The notes below the pieces were generated by a model. That model ran no database searches. It saw only the letters and a list, made by a program, of their open reading frames with translations, and had not been told where the DNA came from. Positions 6,309-60,344 of a DNA stretch of 64,000 nt are shown here, piece by piece; position 1 is the first letter of the stretch; each line of letters begins with the position of its first letter. Position numbers and translations under genes: made by a program. This stretch comes from an uncultured delta proteobacterium (GTDB lineage: Bacteria > Desulfobacterota > Binatia > JACPRU01). The DNA is taken from NCBI GenBank assembly GCA_963712515.1, contig CAVQIG010000002.1, positions 9,408 to 73,407 of the forward strand. Direction: 5' to 3'.

Positions 6309-8654
6309 ATGCGCTGTCCAGCCTGCGGGCACGAGAACACGACGGGCGTAAAGTTCTGCGGCGAGTGTGGTGCATCGCTGAAGCTCGAGTGCTCGAGCTG
6401 CGGCTTCGAGAACGCGCCCGGAATCAAGTTTTGCGGCGAGTGCGGGCGGCGGCTCGCTGAATTCGCGAAGCCAGCGCCAGCGCCCGACCCACGCGCGTAC
6501 ACGCCGAAGCACCTCGCCGAGAAGATCCTCACCTCGCGCTCCGCTCTCGAAGGCGAGCGCAAACTGGTCACGGTCCTCTTCGCGGACGTGAAGGGGTCGA
6601 TGGATCTCGCCGAGCAGGTCGATCCCGAAGAGTGGCACAAGATCATGGACCGCTTCTTCGCGATCCTCTCCGACGGGATCCATCGGGCACCCAGGTTCTT
6701 CGTGTGGTGAACTTCCGCCCCGAGTATCACGCCCGCTGGATGCAGAAGTCATACTACCAGCAGCTTCCGCTCCTCCCGCTCAATCCGGAAGCGATCGCGG
6801 AGCTGCTGACGGATCTTCTCGGCAACGATCCGTCGCTCGCGGGTCTCGGAGGCCTGATTCGTGAGCGAACGGGCGGAAACCCGTTTTTCATCGAGGAGGT
6901 CGTCCTGTCGCTCGCCGAAGCCGGAAGTCTCGAAGGGTCGAAGGGCGCCTACAGACTGACGAAGCCGATACACGCGGTCTCGATTCCGCCCACCGTCCAG
7001 GCCGTTCTCGCCGCCCGGATCGATCGGCTTCCGGAGAAGGAGAAGCGAGTCCTCCAAACCGCGTCCGTGATCGGGAAGACGTTCTCGGAGCCGGTCCTAA
7101 AGCGCGTCGGGGAGCTTCCCGAGACGGAGCTGGCCGACGCTCTGCGGGCGCTGATTGACGCCGAGTTCCTCTACGAAGAGGCGCTCTATCCAGAGGCGGA
7201 GTACGCGTTCAAACACCCCCTCACCCAGGAGGTCGCCTATCGCTCGCAGCTCACCGAGCGAAGAGCCCGCGTCCATGCCGCGGTCGCGCGCGCGATCGAG
7301 GAGCTCGAGTCGGGGAAGCTCGGCGAGCGTGCGGCGCTTCTCGCCTACCACTGGGAGCGTGCGGGCGACGCTAGGGAAGCGGCGAAGTGGCATCGCCGCG
7401 CGGCCGAGTGGGTGGGCCTCAACAATCCCTCTGAGGCGCTGCGGCACTGGGGGAGTGTGCGGGAGCTCCTGGACGTGCTCCCGGAGACGCCGGAGAGCCT
7501 CGCCGAGAGAGCAGCCGTGCGCGCCCTGATCATGAATCACCTCGCTCGTATGGGCGATCTGGAGGACCAGGCGACCTCGCTGTTTCGAGAAGGACGGGAG
7601 CTCGCGACACGGAGCCGCGATCCTCACGTCCTCAGCCAGGTCCTGAACGGATTCGGCAGCATCCGGCTCTATGCTGGGGCCGTCGCAGAGGCCCTGGACC
7701 CGCTTCTCGAGGCGATTCGGCGCGCCGACGAGACGGAGGATGTGGGTTCGAGAGTGGTGGTTCGGTACGGCCTGTCCATGGCCTATTTTTTGGCTGGGCG
7801 GCTCCGCGACTGCCTTGCCACTGCGGAGGAAGGTCTCGGGCTCGCTCGGGGAGATCTCGACCTCGGCGCCGATCGACTCGGGTTTAGCCCGAGCCTCGGC
7901 CTCTCGTTTGTGCACGGCGGTGCGCTGAGCCTGACGGGGCATCCTTGCGAGGGCGCAACCGAGCTCGACCGGGTGATCGAGCTCGCGCGCACGTCTCAGC
8001 AGCTGGTGCCGCTCTGGAGCTCGCACGGTTATCACATCCTTCGCTGTGAGGTCACGGGCGAGGCAGTGCCCGCCCTGGCGCACGGCCGACAGGCGGTGGA
8101 CTACGCGGAGCGGACGGGGCACCAGAATGGGCGAATCTTCGCCTACCTCAACCTCGGGCTCGCGAACGTCTTGAACGGGACATGGCATGATGCGCTCGAA
8201 GCCCTGGGAACGGCATTGACGATCGAAAGGGAACGTCGGCTTTCGGCGCTCGAAGGCGGCGTGCTCGCGGTGATAGCGGCGGCGCATCTCGGCCTCGGTG
8301 ATCGTGCAAGGGCCTTGACGCTCGCGGAAGAAGCGAATCGCCGTCTGCCGGCGGCGCGGCGCCCGACTCTGGGAGTTCTCGGCTCTACTCACCCGAATGC
8401 GCGCTCTCCGTGAGACCCTGGGCCTCCAGGCGACGAGAGAGATCGAGGCTGCGCTCGCCGAAGCCGACGCCTGGCTCGAGATGTCGGGCGCGAAGAGCTA
8501 CGAGCCCTTCCTCCACGTCGAGCGCGCCGAGCTGGCCCGTTTGAGGGGCGACGAGGTCGCACGCGAGCGCGAGCTCCGCGAGGCGCACCGCCTGTTCCTC
8601 GAGATTGGCGCTCCGATCCGCGCAGAACAGGTCGCGAAGGAGCTCGCCGGATGA
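6309..8654 (+). pseudogene. double-zinc-ribbon / adenylate-guanylate cyclase / AAA ATPase / TPR signal-transduction family gene with internal deletion and frameshifts
   Basis: N-terminal CPACGHEN...CGECG x2 zinc ribbons, start of cyclase domain (KLVTVLFADVKGSMDLAE), then jump to the late AAA region and TPR repeats in a second frame (6632-8413), C-terminal tail in a third frame (8397-8654). Confidence 0.6.
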
Positions 8655-17014: not shown

Positions 17015-18868
17015 ATGAGCGGCGGTCACCGCGCCTCCCCCACCCAGGGCCGATCGTCGCGGCCGGACGACCCTCCCACCAGCGGGAAGCTCCGCCTGGT
17101 GAGGCTGCTCCTAGGTCCGTACCGAATCTGGCTGCTCGTCATCCTCCTCGCCATGCTCCTCCAGACGGCGATGAGCATCGCGGCTCCCTGGCCGCTGAAG
17201 ATCATCCTCGACAACGTGGTGGGCACCCACAAGCCGCCCGAATGGCTGACGGCCCTCCACATCTCGGCGCTGCGCGGCAGCAAGATGGAGCTGGCCGCGG
17301 TGGCGGCGCTCGGCACGCTGCTCATGGCCGTGGTGGGCGCGGTCTCGAGCTACGTCGAGAACTATTACACCGAGAGCATCGCCCAGTGGGTGGCGTACGA
17401 TCTGCGCAACCGCGTGTACGACCATCTCCAGCGCCTGTCGCTCGCATACTACGACAGCCACAAGCTCGGCACGATCCTGTCCACCATCATCGACGACGTG
17501 AAGACGATCCAGGGCTTCGCCTCGTCGGGGACGCTCGGCATCCTGGTCGACCTACTTACCATTCTCGGCATGCTCGGCATCATGTTCTGGCTCAACTGGG
17601 ACTTCGCCCTGGCGGCCGTGGCGGTGACGCCGTTCCTGCTGCTGTTCGTGGCGCGCTTCAACCGCGCGGTGAAGCGGGCGACGCACGAGGTGCGCCGCCA
17701 CCAGAGCGACATCATGGCCGTGGTGCAGCAAGGCCTGGAGTCGGCGCGCGTGGTGCAAGCATTCGGCGCCGAAGCCCTCGAGCAGAGGCACTTGAAGGAA
17801 GCCGGCCGGGCGACGGTCGACGCCGCGCTCGCGGCCCGGCGCGTGAAGTCTCTCCTCTCGCCCGCCGTCTCCGTCACCGTAGCCCTCTGCACGGGGTTCG
17901 TGCTCTATCGCGGCACCGCGCTGATCCTGGCTGACGCCATGACGGTGGGCGACCTGACCGTGTTCCTCGCCTACCTCAGCAAGTTCTTCAAGCCGGTTCA
18001 GGATCTCGCCAAGATGAGCAACTCGATCGCCCAAACCGCGGTGGCGATCGAGCGCATCCAGACGATCCTCGATGCCGACATGGTCGTGCCCGAGCGCCCC
18101 GACGCTCGCGAGCCCGGCTCGATCAAGGGTGAGATCGTGTTCGACCACGTCGCCTTCGCCTACGATCCGAAGGAACCCGTGCTCAAGGACGTGAGCTTCC
18201 GCATCGCGCCTGGTCAGTCGGTCGGCGTCGTCGGCACCACGGGAGGCGGCAAATCCACCGTCGTGAGCCTGATCCCCCGCTTCTACGACCCGACCGCCGG
18301 CAGTGTGACGATCGATGGGATCGAGGTGCGCGACTATCGGCTCCACGGGCTGCGCGGCTCGATCGGCTTCGTGCTCCAGGACACGGTGCTGTTCCGGGGC
18401 ACGGTGCGCGACAACATCGCCTACGGGCGGCCGTCGGCCACCCACGAGGAGATCACCGAAGCCGCCAAGCTCGCCAACGCCGACGAGTTCATCGTGCGCA
18501 TGGCGAACGGCTACGACACCCTGGTGGGCGACCGCGGCCTCACGCTGTCGGGCGGCCAGCGCCAGCGCATCGGTATCGCGCGCGCCATCATACGCCAGAC
18601 CCCCATCCTGATCCTCGACGAGCCCACGGCCGCGCTCGACACCGAGTCGGAGAAGCTGGTAATCGATGCCCTGGAGCGGCTGATGAAGGGTCGCACGGTG
18701 ATCACCATCGCGCACCGGTTGAGCACCATTCGCCGTGCCGACAAGATCATCGTCCTGAAGGACGGCCTCGTGGCGGAGCAAGGCACCCACGACGAGCTGC
18801 TGGCTCTCAACGGCGTGTATGCCGAGCTCCATCACGCCCAGGCCGAGCCCGCCGCGCGGCAGGCGTGA
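17015..18868 (+). CDS. ABC exporter, fused permease-ATPase (MsbA/type I exporter-like)
   Basis: Six-helix TM domain followed by Walker A GTTGGGKSTV, signature LSGGQRQRIGIARA, Walker B ILILDEPT; 617 aa intact. Confidence 0.85.
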   Translation: MSGGHRASPTQGRSSRPDDPPTSGKLRLVRLLLGPYRIWLLVILLAMLLQTAMSIAAPWPLKIILDNVVGTHKPPEWLTALHISALRGSKMELAAVAALGTLLMAVVGAVSSYVENYYTESIAQWVAYDLRNRVYDHLQRLSLAYYDSHKLGTILSTIIDDVKTIQGFASSGTLGILVDLLTILGMLGIMFWLNWDFALAAVAVTPFLLLFVARFNRAVKRATHEVRRHQSDIMAVVQQGLESARVVQAFGAEALEQRHLKEAGRATVDAALAARRVKSLLSPAVSVTVALCTGFVLYRGTALILADAMTVGDLTVFLAYLSKFFKPVQDLAKMSNSIAQTAVAIERIQTILDADMVVPERPDAREPGSIKGEIVFDHVAFAYDPKEPVLKDVSFRIAPGQSVGVVGTTGGGKSTVVSLIPRFYDPTAGSVTIDGIEVRDYRLHGLRGSIGFVLQDTVLFRGTVRDNIAYGRPSATHEEITEAAKLANADEFIVRMANGYDTLVGDRGLTLSGGQRQRIGIARAIIRQTPILILDEPTAALDTESEKLVIDALERLMKGRTVITIAHRLSTIRRADKIIVLKDGLVAEQGTHDELLALNGVYAELHHAQAEPAARQA

Positions 18869-18896
18869 TGGCTCACCGATAGCGCATGGAGCACCC

Positions 18897-19913
18897 ATGT
18901 CCCGCTCGCTGATCGTTCTCCCCGACGACACCGCCAAGCCGATTCTCTCCGCCGTCGCCTCGGCGAAGAAATCGCTGCGCATCAAGATGTTCGTGTTCTC
19001 GGACCCCACGCTGATCGCCGCCGTCATCGCGGCGCACCAGCGCGGCGTCGAGGTGCGGGTGATGCTCAATCCGGCCCGTCGGGACGGAGAGCACGAGAAC
19101 GAGGGAACCCGCAAGAAGCTCGCCCGCGCCGGCGTCGCCGTGATCGACAGCAATCCCGCGTTCGATGTCACGCACGAGAAGTCGATGCTGGTCGACGACG
19201 ACACCGCCCTCGTCAAGTCGCTCAACTGGGAGACCAGGAACCTCACCGAGACGCGCGACTACGCGGTGATGACGGCGCACCGCCACGAGGTGGACGAGAT
19301 AGCCGAGTGCTTCGAGGCAGACTGGCACCGAAAGCACTTCGATCCGGGCGAGCAAGCGCATCTGGTCTGGTGCAACTTGAACGGCCGCAACCGCATCGCG
19401 CAGTTCATCGACCGTGCCAAGGAGTCGCTCTTCCTCCAGAACGAGCGCTACCAAGACGAGGTCATCATCGAACGCCTGGTGCGGGCCGCGTCCAGGGGTG
19501 TGAAGATCCACGTGCTGGCGCGCCCTGCCCACGCGCTCAAGAAGGGCAAGCTGATCGAAGGCGTCGAGGGACTGCGCATCCTCTGGGACGTGGGCGCCAA
19601 GGTCCACAAGCTGAAGGGGCTGAAGCTGCATGCCAAGATGATGCTGGCCGACGGCGAGCGCGCGATCATCGGCTCGATCAATCTCGCGCCAGGAAGCTTC
19701 GACAGCCGGCGCGAGCTAGCCATCGAGGTCGACGACGAGCACGTGGTGAACCGCCTCCGTCACGTCGCCGAGCACGACTGGAAGCATTCGCGTCCGCTCG
19801 ATCTCAGCGATGAAGGGCTGCTCACCGACCTCGAGAGCGAGGGCGGCGAGGCCGCGGAGATCCTTGCGCTGGACGCCGAGGCCGGGAAGAAGCCCAAAAG
19901 GCACAAGCACTGA
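18897..19913 (+). CDS. phospholipase D-like (two HKD motifs) protein
   Basis: HEKSMLVDD and LHAKMMLADGERAIIGSINL HxK(x)4D motifs; start chosen at MSRSLIVLPDD. Confidence 0.7.
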   Translation: MSRSLIVLPDDTAKPILSAVASAKKSLRIKMFVFSDPTLIAAVIAAHQRGVEVRVMLNPARRDGEHENEGTRKKLARAGVAVIDSNPAFDVTHEKSMLVDDDTALVKSLNWETRNLTETRDYAVMTAHRHEVDEIAECFEADWHRKHFDPGEQAHLVWCNLNGRNRIAQFIDRAKESLFLQNERYQDEVIIERLVRAASRGVKIHVLARPAHALKKGKLIEGVEGLRILWDVGAKVHKLKGLKLHAKMMLADGERAIIGSINLAPGSFDSRRELAIEVDDEHVVNRLRHVAEHDWKHSRPLDLSDEGLLTDLESEGGEAAEILALDAEAGKKPKRHKH

Positions 19914-19927
19914 GTTCCTGAAGTCGA

Positions 19928-20728
19928 TTGTCGACCGGGACTTTAGGGATGATGATGGGGAGAGCGGTGGCGGCGTTCCTCGCGCCGGCCTGCGTAACCT
20001 TCGCGGTGGTCGTGGCGGGCGACGGTCGCGCCGCCGAATGGCGGGCTGAGGTTCAGGTCGGCCTCTGCTCCGAGCCGGACAAGATAATCACGGCGTTGGG
20101 TCTCGAGCCGGCGGCCGCGCCGCGGACCGAAGTGTGGTACTTCGACGACTCGAGCCTCGGCCTCTTCGCGCGTGGGCTGGTGTTCCGCCTGCGTACCCAC
20201 GACGGCCATTCGGAGCTGACGCTGAAGGCGGCTGATCAGGACTGCGCCCAGGTCCCTCCCGCGTTGATGCCGCGCCACGAGGGCAAGTGTGAGTACGACC
20301 TGCACGGGACGGACCTGAAGGGCGCGGTCTCCCTCGACACGGCGCTCGACGAGCGCACGAGTAAGGAGCTGGTCGCCGGGCGACTGCCGCTGTCGCAGGT
20401 GCTAAGTCCGGCGCAGGTCCGTTATCTGCAGGAAGTGGCGCATGGATGGCCGCTCGCGAGCGGGCTCGAGCGGCTCGGACCGGTCCACGTCGATTCGTAC
20501 CGGAACCGGAGCCGATCTCTCGTGGTCGAAGTATGGCATCTACCTTCGGGGCGGCGGTTCATCGAGATCTCTCAAAGGGGGAGCGTCGAGGACGCTCGGC
20601 AAACTCGCTCCGAGCTCGAGCGCACGCTGGCGAAGGTGGGCGTTCAGGTCTGTGCCGATCAGTCGTCGCAAGCACGAGCGAAGCTTCAAGACCTGCTTGC
20701 AAAACGGGCACGTAACGGCCGCGAGTGA
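19928..20728 (+). CDS. secreted hypothetical protein, possible CYTH-like (triphosphate tunnel) fold
   Basis: Signal peptide; EVQVGL...TEVWYFDDSSLGLFARGLVFRLRTHDGHSELTLK loosely matches the CYTH E-x-E-x-K / YFDTpD...LRxR pattern; weak. Confidence 0.35.
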   Translation: MSTGTLGMMMGRAVAAFLAPACVTFAVVVAGDGRAAEWRAEVQVGLCSEPDKIITALGLEPAAAPRTEVWYFDDSSLGLFARGLVFRLRTHDGHSELTLKAADQDCAQVPPALMPRHEGKCEYDLHGTDLKGAVSLDTALDERTSKELVAGRLPLSQVLSPAQVRYLQEVAHGWPLASGLERLGPVHVDSYRNRSRSLVVEVWHLPSGRRFIEISQRGSVEDARQTRSELERTLAKVGVQVCADQSSQARAKLQDLLAKRARNGRE

Positions 20729-54255: not shown

Positions 54256-54465
54256 TCAAACTGGATGCGGCATCCGGAGCGATCGCAGTTCGCGCAGAGC
54301 TCCGTGCATCTCCGGCAGCGCCCGACTCCCACATTCGGCGCAGAACTCAGTCGTCGGTGCGTTCTCGAAGCCGCAGCTCGAGCACTTGAGCTCTAGTGCA
54401 GCGTCGCACTCACCCCAGAACTTTATGCCGCTCGCGTTTTCAAAGCCGCAGGCTGGGCAACGCAT
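54256..54465 (-). pseudogene. isolated double-zinc-ribbon N-terminal fragment of the cyclase/AAA/TPR family
   Basis: MRCPACGFENASGIKFWGECDAALELKCSSCGFENAP...FCAECG, close paralog of 6309-6420. Confidence 0.45.
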
Positions 54466-54477
54466 CGAAGGTGCCGG

Positions 54478-54800
54478 TCATCCCGGCCGAGCGATGATCT
54501 CCTCGACGACAGACCAACTCGTGCGCGCGAGGTCGAGGCAGCTGGCGTTATCCTGGGTGGCGCGGGCGCCGGCCTCGGAACGCCAGGCAGCTTCCATCGC
54601 CTCGCGGTCGTCGAACCAGAACTCGATGACGGCATCCCAGGCGGGGTCCCGTCGGTCGTCGGGCGCGGCAAAGTTCTGGATGTAGCGCCGCACCGACGGG
54701 ATGGCATGGCGAGTGGACCGTGCACGTCGCGGAAGTACCGGCGGAACTGTTCGCGGGTCCAGTCCGAGCGCCGATGACATACGACGATGAACTTCAGCAT
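54478..54800 (-). CDS. EthD-family protein, one apparent frameshift
   Basis: MLKFIVVCHRRSDWTREQFRRYFRDVHGPLA (ORF 54423..54800 frame) continuing as ...DPAWDAVIEFWFDDREAMEAAWRSEAG in ORF 54478..54780 frame. Confidence 0.45.
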
Positions 54801-54956: not shown

Positions 54957-55514
54957 TCAAGACTCCGGCAACGCGGCCCGGGCGGATTGTAGGGGAATGT
55001 CGCGCACGTCCTTGGCGAAGCCGATCGTGACGACCTCGGTGCCCGAGGCATCCTTGATGATGGAACCCGAGATAGCCGCAGGAAAGCGATTTCCCGCCTT
55101 GTCGATTAGCACCGTCTCGAAGTTGTGGGTCTTGCCGGCGGGATCGCGGTCGACACTGCGCATGGCGCTCATCAAGCGCTTCGCCTCGGCCAGATCACCG
55201 TAGATGAGCGTGACGTGTTTGCCGAGGACTTCTTCGGAGGAGTATCCGAGCGTGCGGCGTGCCCCGTCGTTGTAAAGGACGATGTTGCCGCTTCGGTCGA
55301 CGGCGATGATGATGATGGTTGAGATGTCGGCCGCCTCGCCGAGTTGCCGGCAGAGCTCACCGGCGCGACGGTAGGTTCTCTCCAGCTCGGGCGCTCCGTA
55401 CCACTTGACCGCCACCAAGGCTGGTCCAATTGCGAGCTGTAATGCGAGCTCTTGACGGGTATGGTCTCCGCTGAGGAACCGCACCGACCGTCCATCTACG
55501 GCGCGGTCGGACAT
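54957..55514 (-). pseudogene. PAS-domain protein fragment fused to a cyclase-family-derived segment
   Basis: PAS-like IIAVDRSGNIVLYNDGARRTLGYSSEEVLGKHVTLIYGD...; N-terminal RRAGELCRQLGEAA encoded by 40 bp identical to 8836-8877. Confidence 0.45.
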
Positions 55515-55899
55515 CCGAGTTGGTAGTTTCCGGAAGCCGGTTGTCGATCACACCCAAAGGGGTACGATCTCCGGGCCCTGCTATGTCGGCCCGCCGCTAT
55601 GCAAGCGCTCATTTCGCAGCGTTCGGCTGTCGCCTACGACTGATACGTTTTGATCGTGGAGAGGTGAGTGCTTGGTCATTGCGATGTTTCGCCTTTGCCC
55701 GCGCGGGCAGACACAGTCACCGCGCGCGTTCAATGCGTCAGTCGGGCGAAAACGCCCCCCATACTGGATCGATTCACCCGATCGTCGCTCTTTTCCTACA
55801 GACGTACATTGTCTTTGGCAGCTCAGGGTAGCCGTCGATATGTGAGCAACAAACCTTAACCTTCACAAATTGGTGGGCGTGAAAAGAGCGAGCGCAAAA

Positions 55900-55935
55900 A
55901 ATGTATCGCGCGTTCCAGAGAAGGTGCGATACATT
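55900..55935. promoter_or_regulatory. 10-bp perfect inverted repeat (aatgtatcgc-N16-gcgatacatt), candidate operator
   Basis: Read directly from sequence, ~80 bp upstream of the 56016 ORF in a lower-GC intergenic region. Confidence 0.4.
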
Positions 55936-56015
55936 GCGAGGGGGATGGCCCTGGGGGAGGCCGTTCGTTGCGACGTAAGAGGCGAGAACACGCGTAAGAA
56001 GCGAGAGAGGAGTTT

Positions 56016-56978
56016 ATGGCGAGTCCCATCGCGAAGTTCGTGCCGCAAGACGCATCGAAGTCCGAGATGAAGAAATCGTGGGCGGGACGGGTCCCACACC
56101 TTAAGCCGGGCAAATATGCCGACGGCATGCCACTGCACGAGGTCGAATACCTCGCATGCAAGCTGATTCTGAGACCCAACAGGTTCACGTCGCGAAGGAG
56201 CCTGTTCGATTTCGCAAAGGTGCTTCGGCGGCCTGCCGATGAATGCGGTGTGAAATTCTCTAGGGAGGAGTTCGAGGACGCACCACTCAAGATACGGGAA
56301 GTGCTGTTCGTAGATACCAAGGACTTCAAGCTGTACAATAACGCGTTCATTCTGCGCCGGCGTATTCCTTATACGGACGGGTTTCCCTCTGGCGAGCCGG
56401 AGATCGTGTTCAAGTTCAGGCACCCGGACATGCAGAAAGCGGCGGAGACCGACGTGCGCCCCCAGATCCTTGGCGACCATCGGGTAAAGTTCAAGTGCCA
56501 GGCCCTGCCCCTCAAGGACCAGCTCGGTGGGATTCGGCTGCTCTTTTCCCACAACGTGCAGTTCCCGCGCTCACACGTCAGTGAGACCGATGTATTCAGT
56601 TTCTCGACGGTCACGAAGATCCTTCCTGTGCTGGAGCGCATTCGAGAGTCTCCGAGCGATGAAATCACCCTGGTCAACGACACCATCATCGAGGAGGTGC
56701 TTCAGGACATCGGGTCGCTCGATTTTGGCTCGGGGCTCATAGCGAAGACGAACGTGGCTATCTGGCGCACCCGGGGAGAACACCGGCCGCTCATCGGGGA
56801 GTTCGCCTACCAGATCCGATTCCGCGACAGGAAGCTGCTGGCGCTGAATGCGATGCAACGGGCCGAGCGCTTCTTCATCGCCCTGCAGTTGGCCGCCAAG
56901 GATTGGATGGCTTTGAACGCCACGAAGACGGGTGTCGTGTACCGACTGCTTGGCAACGCCCCGAGAGCCCACGAGTGA
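56016..56978 (+). CDS. hypothetical protein, possible CYTH-like (triphosphate tunnel metalloenzyme) domain
   Basis: 320 aa intact ORF in a lower-GC (~57%) islet; HEVEYLACKLIL and REVLFVDTKDFKLYNNAFILRRRI resemble CYTH E-x-E-x-K and YFDTpD...LRxR elements; assignment tentative. Confidence 0.4.
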   Translation: MASPIAKFVPQDASKSEMKKSWAGRVPHLKPGKYADGMPLHEVEYLACKLILRPNRFTSRRSLFDFAKVLRRPADECGVKFSREEFEDAPLKIREVLFVDTKDFKLYNNAFILRRRIPYTDGFPSGEPEIVFKFRHPDMQKAAETDVRPQILGDHRVKFKCQALPLKDQLGGIRLLFSHNVQFPRSHVSETDVFSFSTVTKILPVLERIRESPSDEITLVNDTIIEEVLQDIGSLDFGSGLIAKTNVAIWRTRGEHRPLIGEFAYQIRFRDRKLLALNAMQRAERFFIALQLAAKDWMALNATKTGVVYRLLGNAPRAHE

Positions 56979-57387
56979 CCCGGGAGATTGAGCGACATTA
57001 AGTGCGCGTCACCCGTCGTGGCAGCCGACCCGAGCGCCTCGCCGAAAAGCGCAGGCAGCCGCCGAGGATCGGGCTGCGGAGTTGGAGGTCAAAACTTTGT
57101 CGGCACTCCCTGGTCTGGGCGCTGGTAATCGATCACGCGGTAGCCGCTATCAGAAACGGTCGCAGTCGTACTGACGGGACGCTGAGAGAGACTTTTCGAG
57201 TATTACGGCGTCGAGCTCTGTGACCGAGATGAGTTTGTGACTCTACCGGGAACGCTGAACGAGATGCGCGCGAAGATGGTGAGCGACCGCGCTGTTCCAG
57301 AAATCATCGAAGACCGCGGAGGCGTCGCGAACCACCGGGCCCAATTTGAACCCGTAGTAGCCTATCTTGAGAGTCCCGCGTTTGGTC

Positions 57388-58785
57388 CTATCCGGCAAGT
57401 CGCAAGCCCTCATATCTGTTGAGGTCGATGCGGTTGCGTAGGAATTTCACGAGAGGATGTTCCGCGGCGCTACCTGCAAGAAATTCAGGGAGGGCATGTC
57501 GCAGCGCGAGGGCAGTGACCTTCTCGGAGGGCGGGATGCCAGGTCGGATGGTGCGGAGCCACGATCCGAAACAGGCCCAGACGATAGCCGGTGATCGGAC
57601 CGCCAAGTACTGGAGCAGGCCCTGGGCGACCAGGCCGAGCTGGATGTGGCGGTGATAGGCAGCGATCTTGCGGTGGACGGCGGCACGGTAGCGGTCCGAT
57701 TCACGATGGAGATACTGGTTGCCCGAGCGGTGGGCAGGCAGCGGCTTCATGGTCATCATCCAGAAGTGGTAGGCGTAGGCGCCGAGCACCCGCAGGGCCT
57801 GCTTGAAGGAGAGTTCGATCTTGAATCGGATGCCGTAGAGGCGAATCACGTCGATGGGGTCGAGAGCCAGGTCAGTGGACAGGAGCAGCGTCCTACCCCG
57901 AGTGGGGTGGTCCACGGCGACGAAGCGGACTTGGCGGCGTAGTGGACGCCAGATCAGGTCCGCCACGCGGTAGCGGATCTTCACGGCGCGCTCGCCGTAG
58001 ACGGGGCTATCGGCCTGGAGCCAGGCCGAGGGGTCGTCGAACAGCGAGCGCAGCCGGATCTTGGTACCGTAGAATCGAGGCCGCCCGCGGCGGCGCGGGT
58101 GGCGGTTGACGGGGCGGTAGGCGACGGCGTTTTTTCGGACGCGCGAGACCAAGTGGGAGCCCGAGGCAAGCAGTCCGAGGCCGAGCGTTCGGCAGGCGTA
58201 GAAGGCATCAGCAACGAGGGTGACCGGCTCGCTGATCCCGAGGGTGGTGAGCAGCGAGAAGAGCTTGATCGGCAACCTGCGCCGGTCGCGGTTGTTGGAG
58301 ACCACTCCCTCGTGAATGCGCGCGGCCAGAGGGACCGCGAAGGCCGTCTGCTCGGCGCCCGCCACGGCGGAGATCGCCTGGCAGGAGTGGCCGCGGATGA
58401 AGGCGGGCTTGGTGTTGCTCTCGACCTGTTTCAATCGTTTGACGGCGGGCATCTTGCGTCCCGACTTGGGGATCTTGATCCCGTCGGCGAGTAGCACGAG
58501 ACGGCCGTCCACGTGCAGCAGGGCCGGGAAGAGTCGCAGGACCGCGGAGGTCCACTGGCGCGCGAGGCGCTGCGGGTCCAGGGCATTGCTGTGGAAGAAG
58601 TCGAGCAGCCGGTCATAGCAGGGCAGCTTCAGGCCGAAGACCCGCACCAGGCTGGTCACGCCCAATAGATCCTCTCTGACGCACAGGCCCGCGAGGGCCA
58701 CGGCCATCCAGAGGAAGGTTCGGGCGCGAGAGCACGCGCCACGGAGCCCTTCGACCGCCTTCCACCACTCCCACCACAGCGCCAT
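57388..58785 (-). mobile_element. IS4-family (DDE_Tnp_1) transposase, intact 465 aa
   Basis: Long DDE transposase with ...LVADAFYA... (second Asp region) and C-terminal ...YHFWMM... architecture typical of IS4/IS701-like elements; element ends not defined. Confidence 0.75.
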
Positions 58786-58814
58786 CGGCCGTCCCTCCGG
58801 GAACGTGTTGCGTC

Positions 58815-58842
58815 TTCTGATAGCTGTATATAGCTATCAGAA
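58815..58842. promoter_or_regulatory. 28-bp perfect palindrome ttctgatagctgtatatagctatcagaa
   Basis: Read directly; lies in the divergent region between the IS4 transposase start (58785) and the small zinc-ribbon gene start (58863). Confidence 0.5.
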
Positions 58843-58862
58843 TCTTATGCTACAAGAGGCGC

Positions 58863-59213
58863 ATGCAGCCGAGGGAACTGGAAACCAGGATCGAGAGGAT
58901 CAAACGGGAGCTGCGGTCGATCGGCCCGATGCGGCCCGGGAGCCTATCGAAGCAGTACAGCGTGTGCGGGAAACCGGGGTGCCGCTGCGTGGATCCGAGC
59001 CAGCCGCGCAAGCACGGCCCCTACTACCAGCTCAGCTACGCCCATCGCGGTAAGAGTACGACCCAGTTCGTGCGCCCCGCGTTCCTGCATGAGGTCAGAG
59101 CGCAGCTCGCCAACTACAAGCGCTTCCGTCGCCTAGTCGACCAATGGATCCATCTCTCCCTGGAGCTGTCCAGAAACCGCCTCGCAAAACTCAAACGCTC
59201 GGTCTCAGACTGA
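58863..59213 (+). CDS. small Cys-cluster (zinc-ribbon-like) protein of a family commonly adjacent to transposases (DUF6788-like)
   Basis: GSLSKQYSVCGKPGCRCVDPSQPRKHGPYYQLSYAHRGKSTTQFV; followed by hairpin ctcggtctcagactgaccgag (59196-59216). Confidence 0.5.
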   Translation: MQPRELETRIERIKRELRSIGPMRPGSLSKQYSVCGKPGCRCVDPSQPRKHGPYYQLSYAHRGKSTTQFVRPAFLHEVRAQLANYKRFRRLVDQWIHLSLELSRNRLAKLKRSVSD

Positions 59214-60344
59214 CCGAGAACTCGGGACTCTTAAGAGCCTATGCAAATCCGCGGAAATTCGACGATCCAAACGCTCTGGACCTCGTTCTAGGGGGCACGA
59301 AAAGCGCGCCGGCACGGTCGGCGATGCGCTCGGGGAACAGGCGAATACAAGCGGTGCGTCGAGGAACTTCGCGCCAAAGCCCGGGAGAATGCCGCCGACA
59401 CGAACAACTCGGCGTTCCGGATGCTCCAGATACTTGAACGCCTGCGTGACTGACACCGTCATGGCGCCATGATCGGCCCGGCCGCCAGGTAAACCGGCCC
59501 TTCCGCCGTACCTCCTACTTCACCGCACCTCGAGCGTGATCTTGTTGATCTTGCCGGTGAAGCGGGTCTCCGGCCCGATGCCGATCCTCTCGGCGGCAGC
59601 AGAGGCAGCCAAAACAGCGTGAAACGCGAGATGCCGGCGGCGAACCGTCGCGCTGCTCGAAGACCCGCCGCTCGACCTCGCGGCCCTTGCCACCGTGTAC
59701 CACCGCCTGCAGGCGTGGAACTTCTCCCATGGCCGCCCGCGACGACCCGGCGCTCAGCAACGTGCGAATCGCCGGGCCGCCGTACCGGATCCGCTCGGGC
59801 CTGCGTAGCGCGGGTTCGTCACCCCGCGAGCTTGTCGAGGAATTCCAGCTGCGGCGCGCCATCGAGCAGCGCCGCCATGTTCACGCCGAGTTCGCCGACG
59901 GTGCTTGCGGTGCGCCGCGAAGGCGTCGTCGTCGACGTACTCTTCGTAGTACCTCGGTTGCAAGCTTGAAGTGCTCAGCCTTTCGTCCTTGGAGATCAAC
60001 GAGAGACTTTGGCTTACGTTTCCTCTTGGGGGATAGCCGGCATAAGCGCCCCATGTTGACATAAGTTCCGAAGGGGGGTATCCACTTTACGCAGTGACCG
60101 CAACATCTTGCGGTCGCGTACCAGGTTCGCCCTCGGCCGCCGCATCCGAACCGCCGACGAGGCCCGGTAGGGAGTCCGGACGCGGCTTGCTGCATGAGTC
60201 GGTGGAACAGCAGTCCGGGGGGACGTGCGTATCAGACGGCCCCGGGGGGAGGAGCTTGCCGCCGGGTGGGGAACCCATACTGCCGGGTTCTCCTGTCTTG
60301 AACGCCGATTGCCCGTGGGGATAGCGGCTACAAGGGCCCGAAAG

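Follow-up and report, generated by a model that had tools for sequence, protein, structure and literature searches.

An intact member of a widespread, unnamed protein family with a predicted triphosphate tunnel fold, left among decayed genes and an insertion sequence

A 64,000-nt stretch of contig CAVQIG010000002.1, from an uncultured delta proteobacterium of the Binatia (hereafter the window, meaning the whole stretch), carries a gene for a 320-amino-acid (320-aa) protein that a first-pass annotation had singled out as the sole gene of a compositionally foreign islet with its own operator. We found that the open reading frame (ORF) is indeed intact, with an ATG start and a Shine-Dalgarno sequence in front of it (Table 1). 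We consider it probable that this ORF represents a working copy, long resident in the chromosome, of a widespread family with the fold of the triphosphate tunnel metalloenzymes (TTM), having a ligand-binding tunnel and an altered mechanism, and that the dip in GC content around it and the hairpin in front of it mark neither foreign DNA nor an operator. Little about the locus itself is out of the ordinary: one intact gene remains amid pseudogenes and an insertion sequence (IS), and nothing points to a foreign islet or a regulon.

TTM enzymes underlie triphosphate and polyphosphate hydrolysis, cyclic AMP synthesis and, in eukaryotes, polyphosphate synthesis. The evidence for this fold comes from an AlphaFold2 model built on a 36-sequence alignment (mean predicted local distance difference test score, pLDDT, 90.7; predicted template-modelling score, pTM, 0.87), in which the window protein forms the eight-stranded antiparallel beta-barrel tunnel characteristic of the TTM or CYTH-like superfamily. 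A Foldseek search against the PDB gave 35 matches at E<1e-3, all of them to triphosphate tunnel metalloenzymes, including AtTTM3, HpAC1, YgiF, BH2851, CyaB, ThTPase, SaTTM and VTC. The predicted structure thus shows the 320-aa family to adopt the TTM (CYTH-like) fold, and the CYTH-like resemblance noted in the first-pass annotation was right at the level of the fold. It does not extend to membership of PF01928 at the level of sequence: the window protein has no match to Pfam CYTH (PF01928) at E<=1, and thus none at the gathering threshold. Matches below that threshold occur in 5 of 36 family members (best E 0.0027, 18 bits against a cutoff of 23.2) and cover profile positions 38 to 88, which correspond to the F98-x-D100-T101 ... 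L113-R114-R115-R116 ... K133 region.

Judged from sequence searches, the family is large, highly conserved and unnamed. In a set of 5.8 billion proteins we found 5,038 homologues at E<1e-3, and identity is 69% or more in each of the best 120; the family comprises 838 clusters at 50% identity, and the description of the gene as an orphan therefore does not hold. Furthermore, a scan with a strict peptide pattern, for which the first family alignment was rejected as too divergent and another alignment was used, found relatives in 501 GTDB species-representative genomes. The hosts are soil metagenome-assembled genomes, with relatives 80-83% identical in Alphaproteobacteria (the named ones being Pseudolabrys and Bradyrhizobium), 65-70% identical in Acidobacteriota, and others in Gemmatimonadota, Verrucomicrobiota, Bacteroidota, Ignavibacteria and Binatia. 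Identity across phyla is thus 65-83%, and 65-70% between Alphaproteobacteria and Acidobacteriota is, for a nameless gene, very high. The source name of every relative is "hypothetical protein"; the window protein has no match in Pfam-A, NCBIfam, PADLOC (0 families at E<=1) or PDB sequences, and for the family we found no Pfam or NCBIfam model and no annotation in the literature. No relative was found among 72,556 plasmids, 50,697 phage records or IMG/VR.

The tunnel residues of the family are conserved (signature in Table 1). Among 190 full-length members, the basic residues K49, R94, R114, R116, K133, R135, K158, K160, R174, R251 and K304 and the acidic residues E129, E226, E227 and E262 are invariant or nearly so, and the basic lining typical of the tunnel is in place, with R114, R116, K133, R135, K160, R174 and R251 kept in at least 90% of these members. 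Such a basic tunnel would most likely bind a metal-complexed ligand of the triphosphate or polyphosphate type. The hallmarks of CYTH proteins are an N-terminal ExExK motif and a late ExE motif (PMC8233210). In AtTTM3, the invariant E169 holds the substrate-metal complex at site 1, and four further glutamates (E2, E4, E90 and E171) make up the acidic patch by which metal site 2 is built and water activated; this patch is missing in the Vtc4p polyphosphate polymerase, and mutating the ExExK and ExE glutamates strongly lowers the activity of AtTTM3 and YgiF (PMC4641920).

The window protein has Y45-L-A47-C-K49 in place of ExExK and E-x-A in place of the late ExE. The first position of the former motif is Tyr family-wide, and the second is Ala, Cys or Ser in the clade of the window and Glu in deeper branches. 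By motif order and predicted strand register, the near-invariant E262, which lies on the last strand (258-268), would be the site-1 glutamate equivalent to E169 of AtTTM3, and the acidic-patch positions of metal site 2 would be Y45, A47, Q162 and A264, which do not form such a patch. Positions 47 and 162 co-vary, with A/C/S paired with Q in 222 sequences, E/Q/D paired with E in 39 and E paired with Q in one; the window protein belongs to the class that lacks both glutamates. As the acidic patch is missing by this mapping, a canonical two-metal triphosphatase is unlikely, and the protein may instead be a phosphohydrolase or transferase that is slow or works by a different mechanism, or a ligand sensor.

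The gene neighbourhoods of the family in other genomes, for which we made our own ORF calls on 80 non-redundant loci, clustered the products and annotated them with Pfam, point to a recurrent partner. At 57 of the 80 loci (71%), a transporter-like gene, either FUSC_2 or a split ChrA, is directly downstream on the same strand. The FUSC_2 membrane protein (about 180 aa, PF13515) is present at 33 loci and directly follows in 22, in 11 of which it overlaps the stop codon by 4 nt; the split ChrA pair (PF02417, 202 and 175 aa) is present at 24 loci, 41-45 nt downstream. A canonical CYTH gene (154-157 aa, with an EIERK motif) accompanies the family at about 18 loci, 15 nt downstream at the nine loci where it follows and upstream in Acidobacteriaceae. 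An unannotated protein of 200 aa (c3) is encoded beside the CYTH gene at about 18 loci, and a NUDIX gene is nearby at about nine. Fifteen loci have none of these genes, as is the case in the window, where tblastn found no significant remnant of FUSC_2, CYTH, c3, VIT1 or Crp neighbours. Elsewhere, then, the gene would mostly be co-transcribed, and often translationally coupled, with a small membrane protein resembling anion transporters. The window copy is a solitary one in a decayed stretch beside an IS701-like element. The co-encoded genes suggest a phosphate-anion handling module.

Several candidates from these neighbourhoods were rejected. A truncated partner gene in the window finds nothing significant by tblastn beyond a 20-aa PLD-like fragment; apparent tandem paralogues of 202 and 175 aa in Acidobacteria are the split ChrA pair merged by single-linkage clustering; and long apparent fusion proteins are over-extended ORF calls, with no true fusion found. 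The c3 protein (197-212 aa; L002, L006-L013 and L060-L076, for example L008 7515-8153, where L001 to L095 label related loci or contigs) has no Pfam or NCBIfam match and always lies beside the canonical CYTH gene. Judging from its motifs (E-x-R near the N-terminus, K-x-R, K-x-R, E...E), it may be a further tunnel-fold protein; a profile comparison with the 320-aa family was negative, both profiles being shallow. In a Gemmatimonadales genome we also observed a phosphofructokinase-family gene that lies upstream of the member of the 320-aa family (L005/L019 5090-6355), and such a gene independently adjoins the distant homologue P0194, which has a Lys/His-rich N-terminal tail (L092 1-321).

The likeliest alternative, and in our view still a rather unlikely one, is a canonical CYTH enzyme, be it an inorganic triphosphatase or a polyphosphatase, that works like NeuTTM, CthTTM, YgiF or SaTTM with two metals, by means of the substitute residues E129, E226 and E227. 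A second metal site could be restored by the three or four invariant acidic residues that accompany the conserved basic tunnel, and the CYTH and NUDIX genes in some neighbourhoods point to phosphoanhydride metabolism. The protein also shares with these enzymes (PF01928) the xRxR strand (R114, R116), the lysine strand (K133) and, by motif order, probably the glutamate of the C-terminal strand (E262), after which come helices that may serve as a plug. However, ExExK has become Y-x-A-x-K and ExE has become E-x-A, a change that bears on the very glutamates whose mutation strongly cuts the activity of AtTTM3 and YgiF (PMC4641920), and the clade of the window has lost E47 and E162 together. The separate canonical CYTH gene alongside at about 18 loci argues against redundancy. 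Furthermore, unlike the known enzymes of 150-210 aa, this protein of about 320 aa has no significant PF01928 match, carries Q162 at the putative equivalent of E90 and would lack the acidic patch of site 2, bears a conserved N-terminal extension (WAGRVPxLKPGxYADGxP) and is found in a different operon context. A thiamine triphosphatase, for which WxRxR is the criterion (PMC8233210), finds no such motif here: the protein has I112-x-R114-x-R116, with Ile in 151 of 151 close members.

A resemblance in motif loss is found in the plant proteins AtTTM1 and AtTTM2 (cluster 7 of the sequence similarity network, SSN, in PMC8233210), which likewise have neither ExExK nor ExE and keep the substrate-binding xRxR motif; AtTTM2 has pyrophosphatase activity. 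In contrast to the family described here, these proteins carry a fused kinase-like domain and membrane anchor, and we detected no sequence relationship to them.

The family deserves attention because its members number in the thousands across dominant soil phyla, are highly conserved and carry no annotation that we could find, and because it would pair a TTM fold devoid of the hydrolytic acidic patch with a membrane transporter that recurs as its partner and is often translationally coupled. With its apparently altered active site, this new bacterial TTM branch could bring to light an overlooked step in how soil bacteria handle phosphate or polyphosphate, and the 320-aa family is an easy target for a new family model.

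The next alternative holds that the gene is a horizontally acquired single-gene islet, brought in by mobile DNA and controlled through its palindromic operator by a dimeric repressor encoded elsewhere; we regard this as quite unlikely. It draws first on the local dip in GC content, which the first-pass annotation had put at 55-57% over 55.55-57.4 kb. In 400-bp bins, GC is 0.555-0.573 over 55.6-56.6 kb, as claimed, and 0.59-0.62 from there to 57.4 kb, which is not; the DNA surrounding the conserved block that contains the gene has 0.63-0.70, and the block averages 0.585 versus 0.656 for the entire window. The GC content by codon position is 0.60, 0.39 and 0.77 (GC1, GC2 and GC3), and this GC3 equals the median of the 48 long ORFs of the window (0.774), so that an atypical codon-position composition is not observed. 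Across 79 loci, the GC of the gene follows that of the host flanks (r = 0.77), with GC3 spanning 0.60-0.95. In every high-GC host the gene lies 3-5 points under its flanks, which is expected because the protein is strongly conserved and rich in Lys, Phe, Ile and Asn. The dip is therefore the product of the amino-acid composition, acting through GC1 and GC2, and of the surrounding 442 bp and 285 bp of non-coding DNA (GC 0.566 in the leader and 0.607 in the trailer), and not of foreign origin. With GC3 at the window median and GC tracking the host, composition gives no sign of recent acquisition, and the description of the islet as compositionally foreign is not supported.

The islet reading draws further on the local history. 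The block at 55574-57263 is 94-95% identical to L001 and L087 and 92% identical to L088, and is partly shared with L089, L090 and L086; the proteins of these close relatives are 94-97% identical to the window protein. On both sides, the flanks of the window are unrelated to those of the close relatives, and L086 has the coding sequence alone, with just 45 bp before it and about 84 bp after it, in a third setting between genes for an AI-2E-family transporter and an OmpA-family protein. Three contexts and an IS701-like element 90 bp away are what variable placement near mobility genes looks like; the earlier statement that mobile DNA lies next door stands, and the context of the gene does vary among close relatives. 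However, the sequence past 57263 is common to L001, L087, L088, L089 and L090, and the window diverges exactly at that position; because five contigs share the right flank of the L001 type, the flanks of the window look like secondary breakage. The left breakpoint at about 55574 coincides with a segment that is variable between L001 and L088. A mobile cassette was rejected because no terminal repeats, inverted or direct, border the block, and no recombinase defines it either. Secondary breakage fits better than a self-mobile cassette. Nor was any homologue found in the plasmid, phage and IMG/VR collections. The ratio of nonsynonymous to synonymous divergence (dN/dS) among close relatives is 0.13-0.27, indicating purifying selection on the window copy, and dS (0.07-0.12) resembles the 9-12% divergence of the non-coding flanks. 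Collectively, these values indicate that the gene was maintained while its surroundings were scrambled.

The operator, the third support of the islet reading, had been proposed from a perfect 10-bp inverted repeat with a 16-nt spacer 80 nt upstream of the ATG, with the remark that no regulator gene is adjacent. We confirmed the repeat (AATGTATCGC at 55900-55909 and GCGATACATT at 55926-55935), and we found no regulator gene adjacent to the 320-aa gene in the window. Taken by itself, the repeat does not stand out statistically: of perfect 10-bp inverted repeats spaced by up to 30 nt, there are 12 in the window, compared to 6.2 +/- 2.9 in first-order Markov simulations. Since its spacer is self-complementary, the element is an imperfect 16-bp hairpin (Table 1), with a predicted RNA stability of -21.5 kcal/mol on the plus strand and -14.9 kcal/mol on the minus strand. 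The outer 10-bp arms are invariant in L001, L087 and L088, a conservation within the lineage that favours an operator. The motif has, however, no second copy in the window and does not recur in 87 other loci, a metagenome scan returned only one unrelated AT-rich palindrome, and neither L086, with its 95% identical coding sequence, nor any of the more distant loci has the hairpin. A dimeric-repressor operator, which should come with a regulator, recurrence and conservation at orthologous loci, is thus not what we observe, and a lineage-specific hairpin in the leader or promoter region is the better description.

This hairpin is possibly a 5' stem-loop of the mRNA. Between the window and L001/L087, the sole two substitutions in its 36 nt form a compensatory change of a U-A to a C-G pair, and in L088 the inner pairs are mostly kept through G-U and G-C pairs, with one broken; the compensatory support is weak because only three distinct sequences are available. 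A 19-nt unit resembling a Shine-Dalgarno sequence, CGTAAGAGGCGAGAACACG, is kept more widely than the hairpin; its copy number differs between loci, L088 having 3.7 perfect copies (1810-1880), and L086 has retained it. A search of 55300-57500 against Rfam at E<=1 found no RNA family, and a promoter and terminator scan found no convincing sigma-70 promoter upstream of the gene. The single terminator-like call of that scan, on the minus strand and overlapping the A-tract of the hairpin, was rejected, as no minus-strand gene feeds into it and the plus-strand RNA is more stable; small ORFs in the 442-bp leader were rejected as coding, given non-triplet indels between relatives.

A more speculative alternative, which we hold to be very unlikely, would make the family a prokaryotic counterpart of VTC that keeps the substrate and metal site 1 and transfers phosphate instead of hydrolysing it, for example to form polyphosphate or another phosphoanhydride, or senses it, feeding the FUSC_2 or ChrA partner. 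Like Vtc4, the polyphosphate polymerase of the eukaryotic VTC complex, the 320-aa protein would keep the site-1 glutamate and lack the acidic patch, and just as Vtc4 works with a membrane channel, the family is usually encoded beside small membrane proteins. In contrast, no VTC Pfam domain was matched at E<=1 in 36 members, and the patch positions are Y, A, Q and A where those of Vtc4p are basic. Furthermore, the family has neither an SPX domain nor a fused transmembrane domain, its partner is of the FUSC_2 or ChrA type and not Vtc1, and the window copy has no partner. Were the VTC-like reading true, soil bacteria would have a PPK1/PPK2-independent route for the synthesis and export of polyphosphate or phosphate anions, of which the window would hold a solitary catalytic subunit.

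Last, it is extremely improbable that the protein is an adenylate cyclase of class IV (CyaB type) or a different nucleotide-signalling enzyme, perhaps with a part in defence, nucleotide signalling or defence having been suggested in the first-pass annotation: the fold matches include CyaB and plant "adenylyl cyclase" TTMs, a Crp-family regulator lies two genes upstream in L002/L003 and a distant homologue lies just ahead of hsdM on three contigs, but Crp adjacency occurs at only 5 of about 80 loci, there is no PADLOC match, the gene was not found on phages, plasmids or viral contigs (IMG/VR included), and the cyclase signature, HFxxxxExExK with a small residue in place of the central Arg of xRxR (PMC8233210), is absent, P39 and L40 standing at K-10 and K-9 and the central Arg being kept (R114, R116).

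Several observations weigh against the reading that we favour, namely a long-resident TTM-fold gene with an altered mechanism. On the side of function, the substrate and activity of the family are themselves inferred, and residues were matched to those of AtTTM3 and YgiF by motif order and predicted strand register, not by residue-level superposition. A profile-profile comparison of the family with the neighbouring canonical CYTH family gave no signal, both profiles being shallow. In addition, the distant member P0145 (42% identity) lies 9 nt upstream of hsdM, the methylase gene of a type I restriction-modification system, on three independent contigs (L093 2887-6182, L094 and L095), an adjacency seen in this distant branch. 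On the side of history, close relatives with 94-97% aa identity carry the gene in at least three contexts, and the left breakpoint at about 55574 is sharp and shared, which leaves room for some mobility. Finally, the hairpin arms are invariant in three distinct sequences, which is mildly above what the 9% divergence of the surrounding leader would give. We observed separately that the hsdM gene beside P0145 is fused to a DUF559 domain.

The surroundings of the gene, from 54.2 to 57.4 kb, are a run of pseudogenes (PAS, EthD, zinc-ribbon and PLD pieces) around one intact gene (Table 1). The PAS pseudogene reported to the left of the islet is there, as a fragment in which residues 1-60 have no domain match. 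Between the block and the IS lies a probable PLDc_2-type fragment, which was found by tblastn with the PLD protein of L002/L003 (65% identity over 20 aa, E 7.6e-4); its 31-aa product has no Pfam match. The IS had been called an IS4 element abutting the islet: the neighbouring IS is real, but it is IS701-like and not strictly IS4, and the 90-bp PLD fragment intervenes. It resembles the IS701 family in its DDE_5 transposase, in its best NCBIfam match (IS701_3, E 1e-43) and in its imperfect terminal inverted repeats (57365-57382 and 59219-59236, about 18-22 bp, 89% complementary); it differs in that the IS701_3 score of 149.8 bits is under the cutoff of 170 and in the additional DUF6788 gene, and no target-site duplication was identified for it.

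Table 1. Features of the locus in the window, and the residue signature of the 320-aa family
Feature	Position	Strand	Details
Double-zinc-ribbon fragment	54256-54465	-	68 aa
Frameshifted EthD gene	54423-54800	-	two frames; halves match PF07110 in different frames
PAS-domain gene fragment	54957..55514	-	185 aa, directly left of block; Pfam PAS_9 E 5.9e-17, residues 67-171
Conserved 1.69-kb block	55574..57263	.	442-bp non-coding leader, 320-aa ORF, 285-bp trailer; from blastn and alignments
Imperfect 16-bp hairpin	55900..55935	+	arms 55900-55915 and 55920-55935; 4-nt CAGA loop; one G-U pair, one mismatch
19-nt Shine-Dalgarno-like unit	55974..56006	+	CGTAAGAGGCGAGAACACG, 1.7 copies, directly upstream of Shine-Dalgarno
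320-aa gene, unannotated family with predicted TTM fold	56016..56978	+	ATG start; Shine-Dalgarno GAGAGGAG 6 nt upstream
Probable PLDc_2-type gene fragment	57264..57354	-	90 bp, YGFKLGPVVRDASAVFDDFWNS...; fills gap between block and IS
IS701-like insertion sequence	57355..59243	.	about 1.9 kb; end coordinates approximate
IS transposase gene (DDE)	57388-58785	-	Pfam DDE_5 E 6e-14
DUF6788 gene within IS	58863-59213	+	
Family signature, N half	residues		Y45-x-A47-x-K49, R94, F98-x-D100-T101, I112-x-R114-x-R116, E129...K133-x-R135
Family signature, C half	residues		K158-x-K160-x-Q162, R174, E226-E227, W250-R251, G261-E262-x-A264-x-Q266, T303-K304

Within the IS, the divergent intergenic region between the transposase and DUF6788 genes holds a near-perfect 28-bp palindrome with one mismatch (TTCTGATAGCTGTA/TATAGCTATCAGAA, 58815-58842), which is a stronger operator candidate than the repeat at 55900-55935.

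A second CYTH-like ORF, reported at 19928-20728, was also found, as a weak match to Pfam CYTH (E 0.015) and, by hhalign, to the core motif of the 320-aa family (E 1.5e-4). It belongs to a pair at 18819-20728, in which a PLD-family gene with two HKD motifs (364 aa), weakly resembling cardiolipin synthase, NucT and PPK1 C-terminal domains, is followed after 14 nt by this 266-aa ORF with a signal-peptide-like start, which shares the F-x-D...LRxR...K core motif with the 320-aa family. PLD genes recur near the family, as a PLDc_2 gene adjoins its operon in L002/L003 and the PLD fragment adjoins the gene in the window.

In a Terriglobales genome, a 119-aa fragment of a second, divergent paralogue of the family lies directly upstream of the full-length gene (L022 5812-6171). 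Another rearrangement scar between related genomes is a 111-bp segment at 6566-6676 of the window, at the start of a 593-aa ORF, which recurs inverted and 88% identical in L086 (5562-5672), about 330 bp upstream of the family gene.

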